From a virus, in UHGV virus genome UHGV-0326727: DNA of 64,000 nt. One strand, given 5' to 3'. How positions within the stretch are numbered: the stretch's first letter is position 1; the number at the start of each line of letters is the position of its first letter. The position numbers and the translations under genes were made by a program. Of the stretch, positions 48,502 to 60,448 are shown in pieces. A model generated the notes under the pieces. The model saw nothing but the letters and a program-made list of their open reading frames with translations. It searched no databases and was not told the origin of the DNA.

Positions 48502-50646
48502 ATGAACAAAGTACAAATTATTAAAAAGAATGGCTCACTTGAAGAACCGGATATCAAAAAAGTTTTAGCAGCAGTAACTAAGTCAGCTAACAGGGTTGGA
48601 TATAAAGAACTTCCACCAGATGTTACCCAAGCTCTTGAGTCAGCATTTATGAGGATTCTGGTGAAGTCCACTAAGCAGAATAATTTGCTCATCTCAGTAA
48701 ACGATATTCACAGCATTGTTGAGGGTGCTTTGGCAGAAGTAAATCACGAGATTTATGAGTCTTACTCAACATACAGAAATTACCGTAAAGAGGTTGCTCA
48801 AAATTGGGATGAGCTTTACCAAAAGACCAGAGACACACTCTTCTTAGGTGACCGTGAAAATGCTAACTTTGACAGCAGTTTAATTTCTACAAAAGGCTCA
48901 ATTATTCGTGGTTACTTGACTAAAGAAATCTTTAAACAGTACCATTTAACACCAGAGGAACTCGAAGCCATTGAAAAAGGGTTTATCTACATCCATGACT
49001 TAAGAGACCTAATTTTTGGTGGGATTAACTGTTGCTTGTTTGACATTGGTAAAGTACTGAAAGGTGGCTTTGAAATGTCTGGCATCGAATACTGTGAACC
49101 GAAGTCTGTACTGTCAGCCTTACAAGTTATCGGTGATGTAGTTCTTTCAGCAACTGCACAGCAATTTGGTGGATTTACTTTAGCAGAGATTGATAAGGTA
49201 CTTGTACCGTATGCTAAGAAGTCTCTACGCTATCATGCTGAGAAAGCAGCATCTTATGGTATTCCTAAAGAACATTACCATAATTATGTCATGGAGCAGC
49301 TACAGATTGAATTAACTCAAGGTTTCCAGTCACTAGAGATGAAGCTAAATACTGTACCTTGTAGCCGTGGTGATTTCGCATTCACAACTTTAACATTTGG
49401 TTTACTTGACTCAGACATGTCTAATGAAGACAACCGACTACAATACATGATTGCAAACACCATTCTTGATGTTCGCATGAATGGACAAGGTAAGAGCAAG
49501 AAGCCTGTTGTATTCCCTAAACTGGTTTATATTCATGACCAGAAGAGACACGATGAGAATATCTGTCAAGGTCAACTGTACAGTAAAGCTATTGAGTGTT
49601 GCTCTAAAGCTATGTATCCAGATTTCTTAAGTGTATCTGGTCATGGTGCTGTAGCAGAGGCTTTTGAGCGTTCTGGCAAGGTAATTTCACCGATGGGTTG
49701 CAGAGCTTTCTTATCCCCATATCTTAACGAGAATGGAGAAGAGTTCTACGTTGGTCGTGCTAATATTGGTGCTGTATCTTTGAACTTACCTATGATTTAC
49801 CAGTATTCTAAAGAGAATGGTTTAGATTTCTGGAAAGAACTTGATAAGTACCTAGAGATGATTCGCAGCTTCCACAAGAAACGCTACGAAATGATTGCTA
49901 ATATGCCAGCAAGTTCTAACCCTCTTGCATTCACACAAGGTGGTTTGTACAAAGGAACTAAAAAACCTACCGACAAGGTTGGTTGGGATATCGTGAAGTC
50001 CTTCACAGCTTCTTTTGGGGTTACTGCGCTTGATGAGTTGTCTGTTCTTGCTGAAGGTAAACGACTCCATGAAGTTGGAAGTTCTAGTTTTGCATACGAT
50101 GTTCTGGCATACATTAACATGAAAACTGAAGAGTTTAAGAATGAAGATGGCTTCCTGTATGCAGTATATGGCACTCCAGCAGAGTCATTGTGTGGAACTC
50201 AGCTAAAACAGTTCAGAGATATGTTTGGTGTTATCAAAGGCGTTTCTGACAAGGAATACTTTACAAACAGTTTCCATATGAATGTTGCAGCAAACATTTC
50301 ACCATTTGAGAAGCAGGACTTAGAAGAGCCATTCTTCCACATCTGTAGAGGTGGCAGAATCCAGTATGTAAGGGTAGCTAACCCAGAAAACTTAACAGCA
50401 CTTAAAAGTTGTATTACCAGAGGGATGTTGAAAGGTTTTTATCAGGGGCTTAACTTTGACTTAGCAATCTGTGAGCATTGTGGTAACAGACCAAAGGCTG
50501 ATGTTGAAGAATGTGAGGTTTGCCATTCACATGATATCTCTGTGATTAACAGGGTGTGTGGTTATCTTGGATGGACTAAGATTAAAGGTGAATCCCGAAT
50601 GAATGATGCAAAAATTGCTGAGATTCGTGACAGAGTTTCTATGTAA
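48502..50646 (+). CDS. nrdD: Anaerobic ribonucleoside-triphosphate reductase (class III)
   Basis: 714 aa; C-terminal glycyl-radical motif RVCGYLG preceded by Cys-rich zinc site (CEHCGN...CEVCH). Confidence 0.88.
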   Translation: MNKVQIIKKNGSLEEPDIKKVLAAVTKSANRVGYKELPPDVTQALESAFMRILVKSTKQNNLLISVNDIHSIVEGALAEVNHEIYESYSTYRNYRKEVAQNWDELYQKTRDTLFLGDRENANFDSSLISTKGSIIRGYLTKEIFKQYHLTPEELEAIEKGFIYIHDLRDLIFGGINCCLFDIGKVLKGGFEMSGIEYCEPKSVLSALQVIGDVVLSATAQQFGGFTLAEIDKVLVPYAKKSLRYHAEKAASYGIPKEHYHNYVMEQLQIELTQGFQSLEMKLNTVPCSRGDFAFTTLTFGLLDSDMSNEDNRLQYMIANTILDVRMNGQGKSKKPVVFPKLVYIHDQKRHDENICQGQLYSKAIECCSKAMYPDFLSVSGHGAVAEAFERSGKVISPMGCRAFLSPYLNENGEEFYVGRANIGAVSLNLPMIYQYSKENGLDFWKELDKYLEMIRSFHKKRYEMIANMPASSNPLAFTQGGLYKGTKKPTDKVGWDIVKSFTASFGVTALDELSVLAEGKRLHEVGSSSFAYDVLAYINMKTEEFKNEDGFLYAVYGTPAESLCGTQLKQFRDMFGVIKGVSDKEYFTNSFHMNVAANISPFEKQDLEEPFFHICRGGRIQYVRVANPENLTALKSCITRGMLKGFYQGLNFDLAICEHCGNRPKADVEECEVCHSHDISVINRVCGYLGWTKIKGESRMNDAKIAEIRDRVSM

Positions 50647-52437: not shown

Positions 52438-52758
52438 ATGAACAAAGTTTATAATACTCGTAAATTACAGATTTTCGTACTGTGCCAGTTTATGGCTAAA
52501 GAGTATAACTACTACTATTGTGGTACAGGGTTCATTAGTGACAATGACGGCTCATATCTACCATTTAAAGAGGCTGTAAAACTCTTCAATGAAGAGAAAA
52601 GCTCTAAGAAAGATATTGAAAAGGTTAAGCTAACCTACAGCAAGAAAGATAAGAAGATTATCTGCCTAGATAACTTTGTCAAAGTTACTGGAGAAGCAAA
52701 AGAGTTTATGGATGAGAGTGAAATCTCATTCACAAGCATCTTGAAAGTAGCTCAGTAA
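52438..52758 (+). CDS. Hypothetical protein (106 aa)
   Basis: ORF; followed by terminator-like hairpin. Confidence 0.35.
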   Translation: MNKVYNTRKLQIFVLCQFMAKEYNYYYCGTGFISDNDGSYLPFKEAVKLFNEEKSSKKDIEKVKLTYSKKDKKIICLDNFVKVTGEAKEFMDESEISFTSILKVAQ

Positions 52759-52770
52759 ACAGATACTATA

Positions 52771-52799
52771 AGGGGACTGTAAAGGTTCCCTTTTTATTT
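52771..52799 (+). terminator. Terminator-like hairpin followed by T-run
   Basis: AGGGGA...TCCCTT stem then TTTTTATTTT. Confidence 0.45.
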
Positions 52800-52809
52800 T
52801 GGAGATAAC

Positions 52810-53325
52810 ATGTATCTGTCAAATCTGAAACGTTCGGTTGCAATGTCAGTTCTAAGACTGAGCTTTGAGGAACGTCAAGAGTTCATTGACTCCCACCAAT
52901 ACGACCCTTCTAACTCAAATCACATGATTCTCTGGAATCGTGACAGTACTCGTGAAAGAGCACTATTCCGCTATTACCCACATTACACCATAGATAATCT
53001 GTATGAATGCTTTGTTGTGAAGAACACCATTGCAGTGCTCAATAAGCTTTGTAGATACAAAGGTAACCAGTCCTTCACACTAGGCCACCATAAACCTGTT
53101 ACAAAAGGTGGTGAGCATCACTGTGCGAACTGGTTTATCCAAACTAAAGCTGATAATCAGAAGCAAGGAGATAATCTTTTAAGCACCTCTAAGATGACCT
53201 ATGAAGAGCAAGAGAAATATATCAAAAATAATATGCCAGATGTGCTTGACAACAACTATACAGATTTGGCAATATCTCTCCTGTTGAAGTTCGAGACAGT
53301 TTATAGGGCAACTTACAATGGCTAA
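52810..53325 (+). CDS. HNH-family nuclease (putative)
   Basis: 171 aa; HNH-like core LGHHKPVTKGGEHHCANWFIQTKADNQKQGDN. Confidence 0.45.
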   Translation: MYLSNLKRSVAMSVLRLSFEERQEFIDSHQYDPSNSNHMILWNRDSTRERALFRYYPHYTIDNLYECFVVKNTIAVLNKLCRYKGNQSFTLGHHKPVTKGGEHHCANWFIQTKADNQKQGDNLLSTSKMTYEEQEKYIKNNMPDVLDNNYTDLAISLLLKFETVYRATYNG

Positions 53326-53596
53326 AGGGAAGTGGGAGATTTTACCACTAGTTAGTGAGGGTGGTAATGGTTGTGAAATGTACATGATACGTGGTCATGT
53401 TCCAGAACCAATTGCACTTGAGATGATAAACAATTTTACAGATGGTTCTTACAAAGACTTAGGAGAACCAACTGTCAAGCAACAATGGGTTAAACCTGTA
53501 CCAGACAGCACAGGTAACTGTAGTGTACTTTATCACGTTGTAGACCCTGCAAAATGCAAATCTGCAATGGCAGTAACAAACGTAACTTTTGATTGA
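53318..53596 (+). CDS. Hypothetical protein (92 aa)
   Basis: ORF with overlapping start/stop. Confidence 0.35.
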   Translation: MAKGKWEILPLVSEGGNGCEMYMIRGHVPEPIALEMINNFTDGSYKDLGEPTVKQQWVKPVPDSTGNCSVLYHVVDPAKCKSAMAVTNVTFD

Positions 53597-54489
53597 GAGA
53601 GAAAACCATGAAAACATCTATCCGTGTTACAGTTCATTCACCAACTAAAGGAACTCATGAAGAAGAGTTTAACATCATCCAATTCCCTTCTGGTGAGATT
53701 GGTGGAAACTTTTCACCAGAGTTTGTTGATTTTACTGCTTATGCAGCATCATCTATCAACAATGTGATTATGATTGTAAAAGGTTATGATAAAGATACAT
53801 TGTTTGCTGTGGCACTTGCTAAAGAGGCGGTGGACAACTTAGTACCTCATAAGTTTGCTATGAAGACCATTATCTTTTACTATTTGCCAAATGCACGTTA
53901 TGACCGTCACATGTTTAAAGGTGATGCAGCAGCTTTGAAAGTGTTTGCACAACAGGTTAATGCAATGGGTTTTGATGCAGTCTGTGCAGTTGACCCTCAC
54001 AGCTATGTACCAGATAACCTGTTTAACTGCTTCCAGAGTATTCCTCAAAAGGAAATTGCAGTCCACTATGCAAATGACCCACTAGTTGATTACTTAGTAG
54101 CCCCAGATGCAGGTGCTGCTAAGAAGATTGCAGAGACTGCTAAAGAGGTGGATAAACCATACATCACAATGTCTAAAGTGCGTAACCTTAAGACTGGTGA
54201 GATTACCGGTATGCGAATCCTTGATGATGTTGATTTGACAGATAAAACCGTTATGATTCTGGATGATATTTGTGATGGAGGTCGTACCTTTATAGAGGCA
54301 GCTAAACATCTTCGTGAAGCAGGTGCAAAACGTGTGGAACTTTATGTAACACATGGTATCTTCTCTAAAGGTGTTGAAAACCTTCTTGACAATGGTATTG
54401 ACCACATCTACACTACAAACTCTTTAGGGGAAGCTAAAGACCGTGGTTTAACACATTATGGTCAAGTTACTGTAGCAAACCTTGATTAA
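53593..54489 (+). CDS. prs: Ribose-phosphate pyrophosphokinase-like protein (Prs family; possible ADPR-PP synthetase)
   Basis: 298 aa; PRPP-binding loop VMILDDICDGGRTF; immediately upstream of NAMPT-like gene. Confidence 0.78.
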   Translation: MREKTMKTSIRVTVHSPTKGTHEEEFNIIQFPSGEIGGNFSPEFVDFTAYAASSINNVIMIVKGYDKDTLFAVALAKEAVDNLVPHKFAMKTIIFYYLPNARYDRHMFKGDAAALKVFAQQVNAMGFDAVCAVDPHSYVPDNLFNCFQSIPQKEIAVHYANDPLVDYLVAPDAGAAKKIAETAKEVDKPYITMSKVRNLKTGEITGMRILDDVDLTDKTVMILDDICDGGRTFIEAAKHLREAGAKRVELYVTHGIFSKGVENLLDNGIDHIYTTNSLGEAKDRGLTHYGQVTVANLD

Positions 54490-54499
54490 AACTTTATAG

Positions 54500-54520
54500 G
54501 GGGCTTTTAAGCCCCATTTT
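54500..54520 (+). terminator. Hairpin with T-run between prs-like and NAMPT-like genes (possible attenuator)
   Basis: GGGGCT-TTTA-AGCCCC then ATTTT. Confidence 0.5.
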
Positions 54521-54535
54521 GAGAGAGATTAAAAG

Positions 54536-56317
54536 ATGACTAAATCACTTTATGCAGTACCAGCAGGTTTAAACGCAGATGCTTACAAATCTGGTCACAT
54601 TTACCAGTATCCTAGTGCAACAGAATACTTGATGTTCAACCTGACACCACGTAGTGATAAATGGTTTAACAGTCCTTTAGCAATTGACGGTGTAGTGGCT
54701 TTTGGTATTCAACGTTTTATTAAAGACTACTTAATAGACCACTGGAACGCCACCTTCTTCGAACGTGACAAAGAAGAAGCAATTGACGAAATCTTAGAAG
54801 TCATGAACGGTGTTCTGGGTAAAGATGCTATTGGTCGTGAACATTGGGAAGCACTTCACGACTTAGGTTATCTACCAGTTGAAGTATACGCTGTAGAAGA
54901 AGGCACAGTTGTTCCTATGCGTGTACCAATGATTGTCTTCCAGAACACTGTTTCAGGTTTCCATTGGGTAGCGGGGTATCTGGAAGATGCTTTCTCTGCT
55001 GAGATTTGGAAGGCTTGTACCATTGCAACTATTGCATTGCACTACAAACGTATCTGTAAGAAGTGGTCTGACCTTACTTGTGATAACGACTTACATTTGC
55101 CTTATCAGTGTCATGACTTTGCTATGCGTGGTATGTCCGGCTTTACTGATGACGCATTTAACGCTGTAGGACACTTAACCAGCTTTAAAGGAACTGATAG
55201 CTTCCCTGCTGTATATACAGCTAAACGCATCTATGGACAGTCCTACCCAATCTCTGATATTGGTAGTTCTGTACCAGCCACTGAACACTCTGTAATGTGT
55301 GCAAACATTGCTTGGGAAGGTGGTAATGAGTTGATTGAAGAAGAAAGACGCTTTAAAGGTGAGTTACAAACTTTCCGTCGTTTCTTAACAGAAACTTACC
55401 CAACTGGTATTGCAAGTGTTGTTTCAGACACTTATAATTTCTGGAGAACTGTATCAGAAATCTTACCAGCACTTCGTAAAGAGATTATGGAACGTGACGG
55501 CAAACTGGTAATTCGTCCTGACTCTGGTGACCCTGTACATATTGTCACAGGTTATAAAGCAATCCACTTAGAGTGTGCTAAAAAGGCTTATTACGAACAC
55601 CTAAGCAAGCTGGAAGCCAGTGACACAATGCTGAATGCTGTTCTGAACATGAAGCTTGAAAACATCAACTATGGTATTGCTGGATGGCTATTGTCAGAAG
55701 GCTACGAAATGGTTGTTGACAGAGAAGACTTTGAAGTTGCTGATACAGTGCTGTTGAAAAATGCTTATATGGTTGGCTCTGCAAACGTTGTAACACGTCC
55801 TGTAGCAGAGATTGATGGGGCTATTAAGACCCTGTATAACATCTTTGGAGGGACTATCAACTCTAAAGGTTTTAAGGTACTGGATGAGCACATTGGCCTT
55901 ATTTATGGTGACTCTATCACGTTGGAACGTGCAAACGAAATCCTGAAACGTTTGTATGAAATGGGTTTTGCAAGCTCTAACGTAGTGTTTGGTGTAGGTT
56001 CTTATACTTACCAGTACATGACTCGTGACACCTTTGCATTTGCTGTCAAAGCAACTCTTGCAAGTATTGGTGGTAAAGAGATTATGCTTGCAAAAGACCC
56101 TAAAACAGATAGCGGTGTTAAGAAGTCTGCTTTTGGTGGTGTAGCACCCATGTGGGATGGTGATAAGCTGAAAGCTGTAGATGGCTATGGATTCCAGAGC
56201 TTTGCAGATGTGCTTGAACATCCAGCTTGTGCTTTACGTTTAGTCTTTAGTGACTCTGAGCAGTTCGGTTACACAACTCTTGGTGATATTCGAAATAATA
56301 TTGACAAGCAACTTTAA
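54536..56317 (+). CDS. nadV: Nicotinamide phosphoribosyltransferase-like protein (NAMPT/NadV family)
   Basis: 593 aa; N-terminal NAMPT-type motif DAYKSGHIYQYP and overall type II PRTase length. Confidence 0.75.
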   Translation: MTKSLYAVPAGLNADAYKSGHIYQYPSATEYLMFNLTPRSDKWFNSPLAIDGVVAFGIQRFIKDYLIDHWNATFFERDKEEAIDEILEVMNGVLGKDAIGREHWEALHDLGYLPVEVYAVEEGTVVPMRVPMIVFQNTVSGFHWVAGYLEDAFSAEIWKACTIATIALHYKRICKKWSDLTCDNDLHLPYQCHDFAMRGMSGFTDDAFNAVGHLTSFKGTDSFPAVYTAKRIYGQSYPISDIGSSVPATEHSVMCANIAWEGGNELIEEERRFKGELQTFRRFLTETYPTGIASVVSDTYNFWRTVSEILPALRKEIMERDGKLVIRPDSGDPVHIVTGYKAIHLECAKKAYYEHLSKLEASDTMLNAVLNMKLENINYGIAGWLLSEGYEMVVDREDFEVADTVLLKNAYMVGSANVVTRPVAEIDGAIKTLYNIFGGTINSKGFKVLDEHIGLIYGDSITLERANEILKRLYEMGFASSNVVFGVGSYTYQYMTRDTFAFAVKATLASIGGKEIMLAKDPKTDSGVKKSAFGGVAPMWDGDKLKAVDGYGFQSFADVLEHPACALRLVFSDSEQFGYTTLGDIRNNIDKQL

Positions 56318-56328
56318 AAGTATATGAT
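56301..56328 (+). promoter_or_regulatory. Sigma70-like promoter TTGACA-N16-TATGAT overlapping 3' end of NAMPT-like gene
   Basis: TTGACA 56301-56306, TATGAT 56323-56328. Confidence 0.4.
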
Positions 56329-56331
56329 AAG

Positions 56332-56354
56332 AGGCTCCTACGGGAGCCTTTTTA
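56332..56354 (+). terminator. Rho-independent terminator
   Basis: AGGCTCC-TACG-GGAGCCT followed by TTTTT. Confidence 0.65.
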
Positions 56355-56370
56355 ATTTCTGGAGAAGATT

Positions 56371-56892: not shown

Positions 56893-59259
56893 ATGCGCAT
56901 GGTAAATGACCACGCAGAAGTGATTAAGAGTTCAACTTCTTTAGAGACGTCTCAAGCACAGATTACAATGACACCTGAAATGTTCAGCCTTTTGAGTTCT
57001 GGTGTATATACCTTTAAAGAAAGGGCAGTTATTCGTGAACTGTCATGTAACGCAGTAGATGCTCAGAAAGAAGCTGGAAAAGAGAACATCCCGTTCCATG
57101 TGCATTTACCTACTCGTTTTGAGCCTTACTTTGAAGTTCGTGATTTTGGAACTGGATTGACTCATGATAAAGTTATGAGTTTGTATCTAAATTACGGGGC
57201 TTCTACGAAGAATGACTCTAATGACTACATTGGTGCAATGGGTATCGGCTCAAAATCCCCATTTGCAATTGCTCAGTCATTCACAGTATCTAGCTATGTT
57301 GATGGTGTTGTCAATAAGTACTCTGTTTACCTTGAGAATGGTATCCCTCAAGTAACTAAGCTGACCACTAACCCAACAAAAGAACCTAATGGTTTAGCTG
57401 TACGTGTAGCAGTTGCTGACCACCGTATTTCAAAGTTCTTTGAAGAAGCTGGTCACGTATACTCATACTTTGCTGTAAAACCAGAAAGTAATATCGAGTA
57501 CGACGATATATTAGCAGACATGAATGTCATTGCCCGTGAAGAAGGTGTTTATGATGCCATGATTCATAAGCAAAGCTGGCGCTCTAGTGGTAACAGGACA
57601 GAGTTTAATGTGGTGATGGGTAACATCGCCTACCCTGTTAACATGGAAGCACTACTTGGTGATGATTTCTTCAAAGTCTTGCCAGAGTTTTTCCGTAGGA
57701 GCGTAGACCTTGTAAACATCTATATGCCTATTGGTTCAGTTGCTATTGCAGCTTCTCGTGAAGCATTGCAGATGAATGATACAACAAAAAATGTTATCAT
57801 TGAGGCTACTAAAAAGATAACTGAAGCAATTACAAAGGATGTTATCAAGAAAGTTAATAGCCAACCTACACTCATGGATGCTGCACAGGCTTATGCTGAG
57901 TTACGTTTAAACTCACGAGAGATGTTTAATGCTGTGTGTCCAAAACTAGAGTGGGGAGGCGTTAAGCTTGATTCTTTGGAAGAAGAATTGCTAAACATTC
58001 GTCGTGGAATTATCTACGCAGAAGACGGCTCAGTTATCTATGAACGTGACGGCAAAGGTAATATTAAGGTTGATAGGAACGGGAACAACATCCCTAAAGT
58101 AGATTATCTTTATAATCCAGTTGCTTATGTTAAGTTTAACTCTTTAGAGAGTAAGATTCGTGCAACAGCGCTTTCCTACACTCAAGAGGCAAGTATGTTC
58201 AATATCTTTGGCGCAATGCGTAAAAGTCAAATTGAGCAGTTTTTGTTTGTTATAAATGACCGTCGCAATAAAAATGGTACTGAGAAGACTGTAGGACGCA
58301 ATCAGATTCTGCGTGGTGCATGTCGAGACTATGCCAGTGAATCCAGTCTGTTTCACAGATACAATGGTATTGTCTTTGTATTCTCGACTGAAAAAGAGCT
58401 AGATGATTTAATCAATCTTCACAAACTTGATAAAAGCTTGTTAAAGATTGTGAAGATGTCTGATAAGGAACATCATTATCAGCGTAAAGAAGCTGTAAGA
58501 GGTGTTGTAAAACTTTGGAAAGCTGTTCCAGCAGAAGGTGTAGCTTCATACAAAGAGGTGTCAGAAGACTTAGATACGATTGAAGAGCCTCAGCTTTATA
58601 TTAAGGCAGTAGGCGACACAGTTGATGGCGAATGTTTTTGCTCATCTCCAGAAGATGTAGCTAAGTCAGTTGCCAATGTCATTGGAAAGACAGTATATGT
58701 TTTCCGAAAAGCAAATTGGAAAAAGATACCAGAAGACTGGATTGAAGTAGATGAGAAGCTCTTGAACGACAGCTTAACTGATGTTCACTGGATTAATCAT
58801 AATAGGTATATGACACGTATCTATATGAATGGTGTCCTTGACCTTACAAGCAGTTGGATTATTGCCAGAAACTTTACGTTCAATAACAGGAAGATTTCTC
58901 GTGGCTATTGCTATTCACGAGACACAAACAAAACTATCTTCTTAGAAGGTAATGAAGATGCTGTTGAGGCAATGTTTGGTAAAATCCAATACGTTGCTGC
59001 ACCGTTTGCATACACTTACACTGTTAGTCGGTTGCAAACTTTGAAAGAATGCCTTGACAATGACACAAAGTTGTACAAGAAAATTAAGAAAGCTGGTGAC
59101 CGTATGGTTATTAAGGTGACAAACTATCTTTTAAAAAGAAAACAAGAAAACTTCTTGCTTTCTCATTTAGATTGGAATAAAGTGTCACCCATCGAAGTAA
59201 GTAAGTTCTTAGGCTTTGATGTGAAGTGTGTTCCAGAAGGGACTACAATTTACGATTAA
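56893..59259 (+). CDS. rIIA: rIIA-like protein with N-terminal GHKL (histidine-kinase/HSP90-like) ATPase fold
   Basis: 788 aa; Bergerat-fold motifs N-box ELSCNAVDA, G1 RDFGTGL, G2 GAMGIGSKS; size and pairing with downstream gene resemble T4 rIIA/rIIB. Confidence 0.55.
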   Translation: MRMVNDHAEVIKSSTSLETSQAQITMTPEMFSLLSSGVYTFKERAVIRELSCNAVDAQKEAGKENIPFHVHLPTRFEPYFEVRDFGTGLTHDKVMSLYLNYGASTKNDSNDYIGAMGIGSKSPFAIAQSFTVSSYVDGVVNKYSVYLENGIPQVTKLTTNPTKEPNGLAVRVAVADHRISKFFEEAGHVYSYFAVKPESNIEYDDILADMNVIAREEGVYDAMIHKQSWRSSGNRTEFNVVMGNIAYPVNMEALLGDDFFKVLPEFFRRSVDLVNIYMPIGSVAIAASREALQMNDTTKNVIIEATKKITEAITKDVIKKVNSQPTLMDAAQAYAELRLNSREMFNAVCPKLEWGGVKLDSLEEELLNIRRGIIYAEDGSVIYERDGKGNIKVDRNGNNIPKVDYLYNPVAYVKFNSLESKIRATALSYTQEASMFNIFGAMRKSQIEQFLFVINDRRNKNGTEKTVGRNQILRGACRDYASESSLFHRYNGIVFVFSTEKELDDLINLHKLDKSLLKIVKMSDKEHHYQRKEAVRGVVKLWKAVPAEGVASYKEVSEDLDTIEEPQLYIKAVGDTVDGECFCSSPEDVAKSVANVIGKTVYVFRKANWKKIPEDWIEVDEKLLNDSLTDVHWINHNRYMTRIYMNGVLDLTSSWIIARNFTFNNRKISRGYCYSRDTNKTIFLEGNEDAVEAMFGKIQYVAAPFAYTYTVSRLQTLKECLDNDTKLYKKIKKAGDRMVIKVTNYLLKRKQENFLLSHLDWNKVSPIEVSKFLGFDVKCVPEGTTIYD

Positions 59260-59338: not shown

Positions 59339-60448
59339 ATGACTACTAAAACTAAAGCACAGATTGACGCAGAAATTTACAAACTGGTTAAAGAAGGTAA
59401 GCTGACTAAAACAGCTATTGCACAGAAGTTCAATACTTCAACCCGTTCAGTTGGTCGTGCTGTAGAGCGTCATGAAGCAACCTTAAAAGGTAAGAAAAAG
59501 GTAGCTTCTAAACCAGCTAAGAAGACTTTGAAGCAAGTTGCTAAGTCAGTTAAAAAGAAAGCTGGCAAACCAGTTGAAAAGGTTGTTAAAGAGGCTGTAC
59601 AGAAAGCTCCAGTAAATAAACTACACGAAGCTATGCAGAATGGTGACCGAATTGAGTATATGATTACTGGCGATTCTGTTATCATGACTTTCGGTGCAGA
59701 TTCTGAAATCGTTGAGTCTACCCATCCGAACTACAAAGAAATCGTAATGGCTGTTGTAGGTGGTGAGTACAAGAAAGCTTTCGAACTGATGAACATTCGT
59801 AAGTCTATCGAAAACTTCACTCAGGGTGCTATCACAATCAAAGGTGATAAGTTATTCTACGGTGCTGTTGAGATGCGTTCTACTCTGGTTGACCGTATCC
59901 TTCACATGATGAAGACTGGTGATAAAGGTTTTGAACGACTTGTAATGTTCTTCGAAAAACTGATGGAAAACCCATCTAAAGACTCTGTAGAACAACTTTG
60001 GGGATTCGTATCTCATCTTGATGTTGAAATTGATGAAGAAGGTTACATCATTGGTTGGAAGAAAGTCTCTACTCGTGAAGGCAAGCTGGTTGACTCTCAC
60101 ACCTACAAAGTACCTAATGATTTGGGTAACATTGTAGAGATGCCACGTTGGATGGTTGATAACAACCGTAACGTAACTTGCTCTCAAGGTCTTCATGTTG
60201 GTGCTTGGGATTATGTTCGTTGCTTCTCAGGTGATACCATCCTGAAGGTTCGTGTCCATCCACGAGATGTTGTATCTGTTCCAACTGATTACAACGATAT
60301 GAAGATGCGTTCCTCTCGTTATGAAGTTGCAGCAATCGTTGATAATCAACGTAAAGTGCTGAAAGCATGGGATGGTAAGACTGAAGCTTTGCATGTCATC
60401 GTTGGCACTGCTGGTGAACTCATCTCTCAACGTAAACGTGAAATCTAA
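59339..60448 (+). CDS. rIIB: rIIB-like protein (putative) with N-terminal HTH
   Basis: 369 aa directly after rIIA-like gene; N-terminal HTH-like LTKTAIAQKFNTSTRSVGRAVERH followed by Lys/Ala-rich linker. Confidence 0.4.
   Translation: MTTKTKAQIDAEIYKLVKEGKLTKTAIAQKFNTSTRSVGRAVERHEATLKGKKKVASKPAKKTLKQVAKSVKKKAGKPVEKVVKEAVQKAPVNKLHEAMQNGDRIEYMITGDSVIMTFGADSEIVESTHPNYKEIVMAVVGGEYKKAFELMNIRKSIENFTQGAITIKGDKLFYGAVEMRSTLVDRILHMMKTGDKGFERLVMFFEKLMENPSKDSVEQLWGFVSHLDVEIDEEGYIIGWKKVSTREGKLVDSHTYKVPNDLGNIVEMPRWMVDNNRNVTCSQGLHVGAWDYVRCFSGDTILKVRVHPRDVVSVPTDYNDMKMRSSRYEVAAIVDNQRKVLKAWDGKTEALHVIVGTAGELISQRKREI

Follow-up and report, generated by a model that had tools for sequence, protein, structure and literature searches.

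The window analysed here, a 64,000-nt stretch of the virus genome UHGV-0326727, raises the question whether a Prs-like gene followed by a NAMPT-like gene encodes classical NAD salvage or the NAD+ reconstitution pathway NARP1. The window belongs to a Felixounavirus. Both open reading frames of the initial annotation were found on the + strand, at 53593–54489 (298 aa when read from TTG) and 54536–56317 (593 aa), as were the two motifs quoted in it, VMILDDICDGGRTF and DAYKSGHIYQYP. That annotation had proposed a NARP1-type Adps and Namat pair and had considered the choice between NARP1 and salvage beyond the reach of sequence alone; with reference sequences added, the choice became decidable. The gene pair is taken, with a probability of about 0.93, to be a Felixounavirus version of the two-gene core operon of NARP1, i.e., the copy of a FelixO1-like phage. 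The NARP1 pathway has already been characterized, and the operon described here is a known system and not a new one. The genes and the motifs preceding them are as follows.

53608–54489, + strand: putative Adps (ADP-ribose pyrophosphate synthetase, PRPS-like), 293 aa, 81% identical to Bas63 gp79
53595–53602, + strand: Shine-Dalgarno-like GAGAGAGA, 5 nt upstream of the Adps ATG, read from the sequence
54536–56317, + strand: putative Namat (nicotinamide ADP-ribose transferase, NAMPT fold), 593 aa, 98% identical to Bas63 gp80
54521–54528, + strand: Shine-Dalgarno-like GAGAGAGA, identical to the Adps motif, 7 nt upstream of the Namat ATG, read from the sequence

The PRPS-like gene lies directly ahead of the NAMPT-like gene in the same orientation, with a spacer of 46 nt. 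Pfam domains Pribosyltran and Pribosyl_synth were found in the first protein and NAPRTase (1e-35) and NAMPT_N in the second, and the PHROGs matches were ribose-phosphate pyrophosphokinase (4e-99) and nicotinamide phosphoribosyl transferase (7e-202), respectively. The alignment of the second protein with Bas63 gp80 was gap-free, with 582 of 593 residues identical. The order of the two genes is that of Bas63, and the flanking gp77, gp78, rIIA, and rIIB also occur in the same order. By these comparisons, the two genes are orthologues of genes 79–80 of Bas63 (JohannRWettstein). NARP1 was discovered, and validated genetically, in that Bas63 operon. This orthology bears out the NARP1-type assignment, together with the residues found in both proteins at the positions by which structural papers tell Namat from Nampt and Adps from Prs. 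The operon was found in at least 231 related phage records.

The initial annotation had placed the start of Adps at TTG 53593 (298 aa). The real start is almost certainly ATG 53608 (293 aa), 15 nt downstream, since the stop codon of the preceding ORF overlaps this TTG, which itself lies ahead of the Shine-Dalgarno-like motif at 53595–53602, and since MKT opens Bas63 gp79 as well as each of the five further homologues retrieved, all of them 293 aa long. The 5′ part of the gene differs from that of Bas63.

53608–54100, + strand: recombinant (mosaic) 5′ part of Adps, covering most of the N-terminal domain, from nucleotide identity to Bas63

In 100-nt bins across 53600–54099, nucleotide identity to Bas63 was 60–73% in four of the five bins and 0.87 in the other (53900–53999); neighbouring bins on either side typically reached 88–99%, and the one immediately upstream was at 100%. 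At the protein level, identity was 73% in the N-terminal domain and 89% in the C-terminal domain, and the N-terminal domain is a recombinant allele. The dN/dS was ∼0.1 in both halves of the gene, and therefore Adps is under purifying selection. Positive selection on the N-terminal domain was considered and rejected, the dN/dS there being ∼0.10–0.15 with synonymous differences near saturation; the pattern fits old alleles swapped by recombination.

The predicted structure and the active site of the second protein point to Namat. Its best solved relative by sequence was the SpbetaL1 Namat (9W5W/9W5X, E = 6e-128), the predicted fold (AF2 model, pLDDT 94) matched that enzyme with a TM of 0.95, and the fold search with the model ranked Namat above NadV and human NAMPT. 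Residues D15, Y17, F195, R198, D221, H251, R327, and D329, compared with the Nampt-like core residues D13, Y15, F189, R192, D215, the catalytic His, R306, and D308 of SpbetaL1, were invariant in an alignment of 65 sequences, and all active-site residues of SpbetaL1 were identical or conservatively replaced in the window Namat, including G458 and D459. The adenine clamp published for Namat maps to two segments.

54659–54664, + strand: selectivity-clamp loop (SCL) residues K42-W43, from alignment to SpbetaL1 R40-V41
55997–56029, + strand: selectivity-clamp helix (SCH) signature GSYTYQYMTRD, aa 488–498, from sequence comparison

The clamp residues of the window Namat are Y490, Y494, T496, R497, and D498 plus K42-W43, with Y490/Y494 aligned to SpbetaL1 F392/Y396; at the SCH position, H. 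ducreyi NadV carries GAQTYQRNTRD and Xcc Nampt carries GGALLQKVDRD. K42 aligned with SpbetaL1 R40, and the K42-W43 segment is identical in Bas63. Under the SCL rule, the adenine is stacked either by an Arg at the third position of the loop or, where Lys/Tyr occurs there, by the residue that follows; with Lys at the R40 position it is the next residue that stacks, as in Bas63, and K42-W43 would supply the adenine-stacking residue here as well.

The initial annotation had drawn attention to ∼100 additional residues in this protein. The extra length is real and, relative to the 491-aa SpbetaL1 Namat, is made up of two insertions.

55304–55366, + strand: insertion 1, variable block aa 257–277, directly after the catalytic His251 segment, from alignments
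55556–55816, + strand: insertion 2, aa 341–427, predicted compact α/β subdomain, from the predicted structure

Insertion 1 measures ∼15 aa (aa 258–272) in the pairwise alignment with SpbetaL1 Namat and spans aa 257–277 in multiple alignments; the block is shorter in bacterial homologues, and its length varies among phage homologues. Insertion 2 (∼85–87 aa relative to SpbetaL1 Namat) is also present in Bas63 Namat. The extra length is thus common to a validated protein and therefore gives no evidence for a different function. Insertion 2 goes undiscussed in the NARP1 literature checked. It is conceivable, although rather doubtful, that the operon combines NARP1 with an extra role, the lineage-specific insertion 2 adding a function absent from the SpbetaL1-type enzyme, such as regulation, partner binding, or escape from a host inhibitor or factor targeting Namat. 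In keeping with such a role, the prediction shows insertion 2 as a subdomain that is well folded and autonomous, and long-form homologues with identities as low as 46% retain a length of ∼70–90 aa for it, while its sequence evolves much faster than the Namat core (e.g., 49% versus 87% identity). It also comes right after the strand bearing the catalytic R327 and D329, and the fold topology would place it on the catalytic face of the barrel. Against this, searches detected no sequence relative, recognizable domain, motif, or fold relative of insertion 2, other phage lineages carry unrelated insertions of 30–95 aa at the same two sites, as tolerant surface loops would, and the SpbetaL1 and ICP1 NARP1 systems work without it. 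The type of insert does not co-segregate with the variable Adps N-terminal allele; a docking surface for the Adps N-terminal domain is not supported, as alleles only 66–73% identical pair with insertions 95–99% identical. If an extra role were true, insertion 2 and the recombining Adps N-terminal alleles would add another level to the NAD+ arms race.

Whether the first protein is a NARP1 Adps or a PRPP synthetase was evaluated by comparison with the structurally characterized Adps of Vibrio phage ICP1 (sequence taken from GenBank; 33% identity) and with E. coli Prs (26%).

54175–54177, + strand: codon of Adps K190, equivalent to the ICP1 catalytic Lys185, from alignment
54262–54291, + strand: PP-loop/donor-site segment DDICDGGRTF of Adps, from alignment to ICP1 Adps

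The DDICDG stretch is exactly that of ICP1 Adps D212–G217, where E. coli Prs reads DDMIDTGGTL. Residues R97, H131, D167, K190, D219, D220, and D223 matched ICP1 Adps in the alignment, the ICP1 counterparts compared being Lys185 and the acceptor residues R87, H121, D161, D212, D213, and D216. The K185A substitution in ICP1 Adps abolishes ADPR-PP formation (PMC13586617). The ICP1 adenine-contact residues F18/F92 aligned with H17/M102 in a weak, low-identity stretch, and Bas63 has the same residues as the window. The window Adps is devoid of the C-terminal α11–12 filament/allosteric module of PRPS (293 versus 315 aa in E. coli Prs). None of the NCBIfam Prs equivalog cut-offs was reached (best 105.9 bits against a cut-off of 296), and the broad subfamily model alone was passed (123 against 113 bits); overall, the NCBIfam Prs models gave 93–123 bits with the window protein and 423–533 bits with E. 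coli Prs. The search of solved structures returned canonical Prs entries only, from a PDB copy evidently without the ICP1 Adps structures.

These residues also bear on classical NAD salvage, in which a true PRPP synthetase and a true NadV/Nampt would convert ribose-5-phosphate, ATP, and nicotinamide to NMN, with host enzymes completing NAD+. The Pfam, PHROG, and GenBank names agree with Prs/NadV, Namat passes the NCBIfam model NF006629 ‘nicotinate phosphoribosyltransferase’, and SpbetaL1 Namat forms NMN in vitro at about half the level of human Nampt. However, the Adps loop reads DDICDGGRT and not the DDMIDTGGT of Prs, the protein falls below every Prs equivalog cut-off, Namat has the clamp aromatics missing from H. 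ducreyi NadV and Xcc Nampt, and no product was detected with SpbetaL1 Adps in the no-ADPR control (described as ribose-5-phosphate in the legend and as ‘PRPP’ in the main text). Classical Prs/NadV salvage is very unlikely on these comparisons, and the public names ‘ribose-phosphate pyrophosphokinase’ and ‘nicotinate’/‘nicotinamide phosphoribosyltransferase’ are misleading as to the function of Adps and Namat. Namat enzymes retain some PRPP-to-NMN activity in vitro, so that a minor salvage contribution by Namat may accompany NARP1. That the operon is a decayed, non-functional relic is hardly credible. The N-terminal half of Adps does differ strongly from the allele validated in Bas63, but neither reading frame is interrupted, every mapped catalytic residue is conserved, dN/dS is low in both Adps halves, and an Adps with at least 95% identity to that of the window over the whole protein occurs in 105 phage records.

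Other members of the NARP group were rejected in turn. NARP1-AP, with the Macro-domain ADPR-1″-phosphate phosphatase Adpp, was set aside as no gene lies between Adps and Namat and the Macro domain is absent from the four flanking ORFs. NARP2 (Nampt and Nmnat) disagrees with the presence of the adenine clamp and of an adjacent Adps; no Nmnat gene was found beside the operon, and none is annotated in Bas63 at 30–79 kb. NARP3, consisting of a PnuC-type transporter and an RNK-NMNAT/NadR-like protein, was dismissed as the two proteins carry PRPS and NAMPT domains only.

The noncoding elements around the genes suggest how the NARP1 operon may be transcribed.

52741–52792, + strand: upstream promoter-like site and hairpin cassette, consensus match only
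54500–54515, + strand: small conserved hairpin between Adps and Namat, from folding and Bas63 comparison
56301–56328, + strand: promoter-like site ahead of the closing hairpin, consensus match only
56329–56352, + strand: strong terminator-like hairpin closing the operon, 10-bp stem and T-run, from the terminator scan

A hairpin between the genes, as noted in the initial annotation, is indeed present in the spacer, but it is small and misses the criteria of the terminator scan. It consists of a 6-bp stem (GGGGCU/AGCCCC) and a 4-nt loop followed by AUUUUG, with a folding energy of −12.7 kcal/mol (z = −2.4); the stem is kept in Bas63, and the loop alone differs. A function as intrinsic terminator is unsupported by the scan, and an attenuator, a processing/stability element, or a recombination/homing site is more likely. 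The stem and T-run of the closing hairpin are identical in Bas63. Adps and Namat are probably transcribed as one unit ending at this terminator. The cassettes at 52741–52792 and 56301–56352 bracket a block of four genes: gp77-like, gp78-like, Adps, and Namat. As a separate observation, phage ECML-1 has an HNH endonuclease gene between Adps and Namat.

In the proposed mechanism, NAD+-depleting defence systems (Sir2-HerA/Nezha, DSR1/2, type I Thoeris, SEFIR, and similar) would split NAD+ into ADP-ribose and nicotinamide. Adps would move the β,γ-pyrophosphate from ATP to the 1″-OH group of ADPR, giving ADPR-PP, and Namat would join ADPR-PP and nicotinamide directly to NAD+, bypassing NMN; the restored NAD+ would make phage replication possible. 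Within the window, this proposal is based on orthology to the validated operon, on the conservation of residues for catalysis and specificity, on the fold prediction, and on how the genes are arranged; the literature supplies the chemistry, from in vitro work with the SpbetaL1 and ICP1 enzymes, and the phenotype, from Bas63 knockouts. Bas63 genes 79–80 define NARP1, and their deletion renders Bas63 sensitive to Sir2-HerA; two independent groups have seen deletion in Bas63 sensitize the phage to NAD+-depleting defences. Deletion of g79 or g80 singly lowers plating 1e4- to 1e6-fold each, with rescue by complementation. The effect is independent of host pncC and nadR, and ADPR-PP was detected only in infected, defence-positive cells. 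The Bas63 protein purified poorly, and the in vitro data come from the SpbetaL1 and ICP1 homologues, which are ∼33–38% identical. The allele in the window would be expected to behave like these orthologues. Hence, the phage is predicted to resist NAD+ depletion of the Sir2-HerA, DSR, type I Thoeris, and SEFIR types; it should not resist aRES because no Adpp gene is present in or beside the operon. As NARP1 is an established counter-defence, another FelixO1-like copy brings no new biology.

Among the known systems compared, E. coli Prs, a class I PRPP synthetase, shares with the window Adps the PRPS fold family and the catalytic Lys/Arg hairpin region, whereas its ribose-5-phosphate loop DTGGT is replaced by CDGGRT and its C-terminal regulatory helices are missing. 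The cellular NadV/Nampt enzymes (H. ducreyi 9KE8, Xanthomonas 7YQO, and human NAMPT) have the fold and catalytic residues of the window Namat, and the NARP2 enzyme of Vibrio phage KVP40 (Nampt/NadV with Nmnat) likewise shares the NAMPT fold and the nicotinamide/ribose-phosphate catalytic residues; both groups, however, prefer PRPP, make NMN, and are devoid of the aromatic clamp residues, and NARP2 phages have no Adps, which is adjacent in the window. ICP1 Adps (structures in PMC13586617) resembles the window Adps in the DDICDG PP-loop, the catalytic Lys, the acceptor Arg/His/Asp/Asp-Asp/Asp set, and the absence of the PRPS C-terminal module, and differs in the tail of the PP-loop (AASF versus GRTF); its adenine-stacking F18 and F92 are unmatched in the weak part of the alignment. 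SpbetaL1 NARP1, the Adps and Namat of the original biochemistry, has the same two-gene layout, catalytic core, and SCH clamp motif (GSFTYQYNTRD, against GSYTYQYMTRD in the window); its Namat is ∼38% identical and without both insertions, and R40 of its SCL stacks on the adenine, whereas the window follows Bas63 in this respect. The closest system is that of Escherichia phage JohannRWettstein (Bas63; bas63_0079, bas63_0080; MZ501086). It has an unlike allele of the Adps N-terminal domain and an additional small gene after Namat, bas63_0081, which is absent from the window, but it agrees with the window in genus, gene order and neighbours, in an Adps of equal length and a 593-aa Namat with both insertions, and in the stem of the hairpin between the genes and the terminator after them.

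The initial annotation placed two adjacent genes in this region; both ORFs are present on the plus strand, and the motifs quoted for them were found in both proteins. Pfam analysis identified Pribosyltran and Pribosyl_synth domains in the first protein (Adps, PRPS-like) and NAPRTase and NAMPT_N domains in the second (Namat, NAMPT fold). PHROGs assigned the first to ribose-phosphate pyrophosphokinase (4e-99) and the second to nicotinamide phosphoribosyl transferase (7e-202). The features of the operon are as follows:

53593-54489, plus strand, Adps ORF as first annotated
53595-53602, ribosome-binding motif GAGAGAGA before Adps, read from the sequence
54500-54515, hairpin in the Adps-Namat spacer (6-bp stem, -12.7 kcal/mol, z = -2.4)
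54521-54528, second copy of GAGAGAGA, before the Namat gene, read from the sequence
54536-56317, plus strand, Namat ORF
55556-55816, Namat insertion 2 (aa 341-427)
56329-56352, terminator-like hairpin 3' of Namat, much stronger than the spacer hairpin

The Adps ORF stood, but its start should be moved from TTG 53593 to ATG 53608, with a predicted product of 293 aa, because the TTG overlaps the upstream ORF stop codon and lies 5' of the ribosome-binding motif, and because each of the six homologues compared has 293 aa and starts with MKT. The hairpin claimed between the genes is present in the 46-nt spacer; however, it is small and was not called by the terminator scan. Its stem, not its loop, is kept in Escherichia phage JohannRWettstein (Bas63); the hairpin following Namat has an identical stem and T-run there. 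When the 64-kb window was scanned generically, only two cassettes with a sigma-70-like promoter and, immediately after it, a GC hairpin, T-run, GGAG and ATG were detected, 52741-52792 and 56301-56352, which align with one another and bracket exactly a four-gene block (gp77-like, gp78-like, Adps and Namat). Their layout is like that of the promoter-stem-loop cassettes known from T4-type phages.

The pair had been proposed to encode NARP1, which rebuilds NAD+ from ADPR and nicotinamide, with classical Prs/NadV salvage via NMN as the alternative. Direct comparison with the Bas63 reference (MZ501086) showed that Namat is identical to gp80 at 582 of 593 residues with zero gaps, and Adps to gp79 at 238 of 293. 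In Bas63, operon deletion led to sensitivity to Sir2-HerA, ADPR-pyrophosphate was seen only in defence-positive cells infected by the wild type, and rescue did not depend on PncC and NadR, the host enzymes that use NMN. In an independent knockout screen, loss of g79 or g80 alone caused a 1e4-1e6-fold drop in plating on Sir2-HerA, which complementation reversed. The operon region was matched by 259 phage records, 231 of them at ≥80% of its length and the top ones ~97% identical, nearly all from Escherichia, Salmonella, Shigella and Citrobacter phages of Felixounavirus and relatives.

Residue analysis bore out the assignment of the Prs-like protein as Adps. Alignment with E. coli Prs and the ICP1 enzyme, on which the Adps structure was worked out (PMC13586617), showed that the acceptor residues are conserved, along with K190 as the catalytic lysine and the ICP1-type donor loop DDICDG, whereas E. 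coli Prs has DDMIDT at this position and a C-terminal module missing from the window Adps. The protein fell below every cut-off of the NCBIfam Prs equivalog models (best 105.9 bits vs 296) and barely passed the broad subfamily model (123 vs cut-off 113; E. coli Prs 423). The adenine-stacking aromatics F18 and F92 of ICP1 Adps are unmatched, in a weakly aligned stretch; at both positions the window and Bas63 agree.

The second protein likewise matched the Namat type, including the 'selectivity clamp' that distinguishes Namat from Nampt (PMC12774641). Its selectivity-clamp helix (aa 488-498, GSYTYQYMTRD) is close to that of SpbetaL1 Namat (GSFTYQYNTRD); the corresponding segments are GAQTYQRNTRD in the true NMN-forming H. 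ducreyi NadV (9KE8) and GGALLQKVDRD in Xanthomonas Nampt. The loop carries K42-W43 of the Bas63 type, and every catalytic-core residue maps to an identical residue, invariant across 65 homologues. The AlphaFold2 model (pLDDT 94, pTM 0.92) was nearest to SpbetaL1 Namat (TM 0.95), with NadV and human NAMPT ranking behind. The clamp GS[YF]TYQYNTRD was also observed in enterobacterial proteins of 496 aa (P0067, P0070, P0073, P0094, P0110-P0118), encoded on chromosomes of Klebsiella, Cronobacter, Erwinia and relatives, for which NCBIfam (NF006629) gives the name 'nicotinate phosphoribosyltransferase'. These are probably Namat-type enzymes of bacterial or prophage NARP1, the curated name being misleading.

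The ~100 aa extra length noted for the NAMPT-like protein resolved into two insertions relative to SpbetaL1 Namat. Insertion 1 spans ~15 aa (aa 258-272) in pairwise alignment with that protein, and its variable block covers aa 257-277 (55304-55366) in multiple alignments. Insertion 2 was confidently predicted to form a compact α/β subdomain in the full model, and also when modelled alone (pLDDT 93, pTM 0.83). It follows the strand bearing R327 and D329 and, by barrel topology, should project from the catalytic face. It gave no significant Pfam match, and a search of 1.84 billion representative proteins returned a single, apparently truncated Namat. Long-form Namats (~580-610 aa, identity down to 46%) occur in Ounavirinae-type phages, with a steady insert length (~70-90 aa) and a sequence diverging much faster than the core, e.g., 49% vs 87%. 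Insert types in this set recombine independently of the core (e.g., P0028 vs P0029), and both sites are hot spots, where the insertions of other phage lineages (7-45 aa and 11-95 aa) are unrelated. The word 'insertion' is absent from the Namat structure paper (PMC12774641), and no discussion of the extra length was seen in three other papers on NARP1; SpbetaL1 homologues were used in vitro because the Bas63-type protein purified poorly. Validated Bas63 Namat has both insertions, which are thus compatible with NARP1 function in vivo.

Over its first 500 nt (53608-54100), Adps carries an N-terminal-domain allele divergent from that of Bas63, the divergence setting in abruptly at the start codon. 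The 100 nt upstream match Bas63 at 100%; nucleotide identity is then mostly 60-73% over 53600-54099 (0.87 in the 53900-53999 bin), ~0.87-0.92 in the remaining Adps and 0.90-0.98 across Namat. Phages of Felixounavirus and Mooglevirus carry several allele groups between them; sorted by identity, the alleles in the genus gave 105 records at ≥95%, 50 at 90-95%, 42 at 80-90% and 56 at 60-80%. With dN/dS of ~0.10-0.15 in each half and N-half synonymous differences near saturation, the mosaic fits old alleles reshuffled by recombination under purifying selection. Positive selection on the N-domain allele was rejected (dN/dS ~0.1). An HNH endonuclease gene lies between Adps and Namat in Escherichia phage ECML-1 (L007:3091-3582), and a homing endonuclease likewise in this region of SME50, suggesting homing-associated gene conversion; the spacer (54490-54535) may be a homing site driving the local mosaicism. 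Allele type and Namat insertion type did not co-segregate.

The neighbouring genes are in identical order in Bas63 and the window. The ORF at 52810-53325 is the gp77 orthologue (95% identity); gp77 is reported to counter the Ec67 retron and described with a GIY-YIG domain, which Pfam did not find in this ORF, and by eye its GHHKPVTKGGEHHCANW stretch is more reminiscent of an HNH motif. Downstream lie rIIA-like (56893-59259) and rIIB-like (59339-60448) genes. As their Bas63 orthologues gp84 and gp85 are reported to counter QatABCD, the stretch around the operon is dense in validated counter-defence genes. In contrast to the window (~56353-56370), Bas63 has an additional 345-nt gene, bas63_0081, straight after Namat (L001:25509-25853), and the 56300 bin of the alignment contained 350 gap columns. 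NrdD is uninterrupted in the window (48502-50646, 714 aa), whereas the Bas63 gene is in two pieces (joined as bas63_0067), separated by an intervening sequence that contains the homing endonuclease gene bas63_0068.

Among known pathways, NARP3 (PnuC transporter and NadR-like enzyme) does not fit the operon, and NARP2 was rejected as it calls for a Nampt that lacks the clamp and a phage that lacks Adps. By gene content the operon is core NARP1 rather than NARP1-AP, since no Macro-domain Adpp gene lies in or next to it; by published logic, such a system should fail to overcome aRES. The comparison supports its identification as NARP1, already known, since this operon and the type example are one system.
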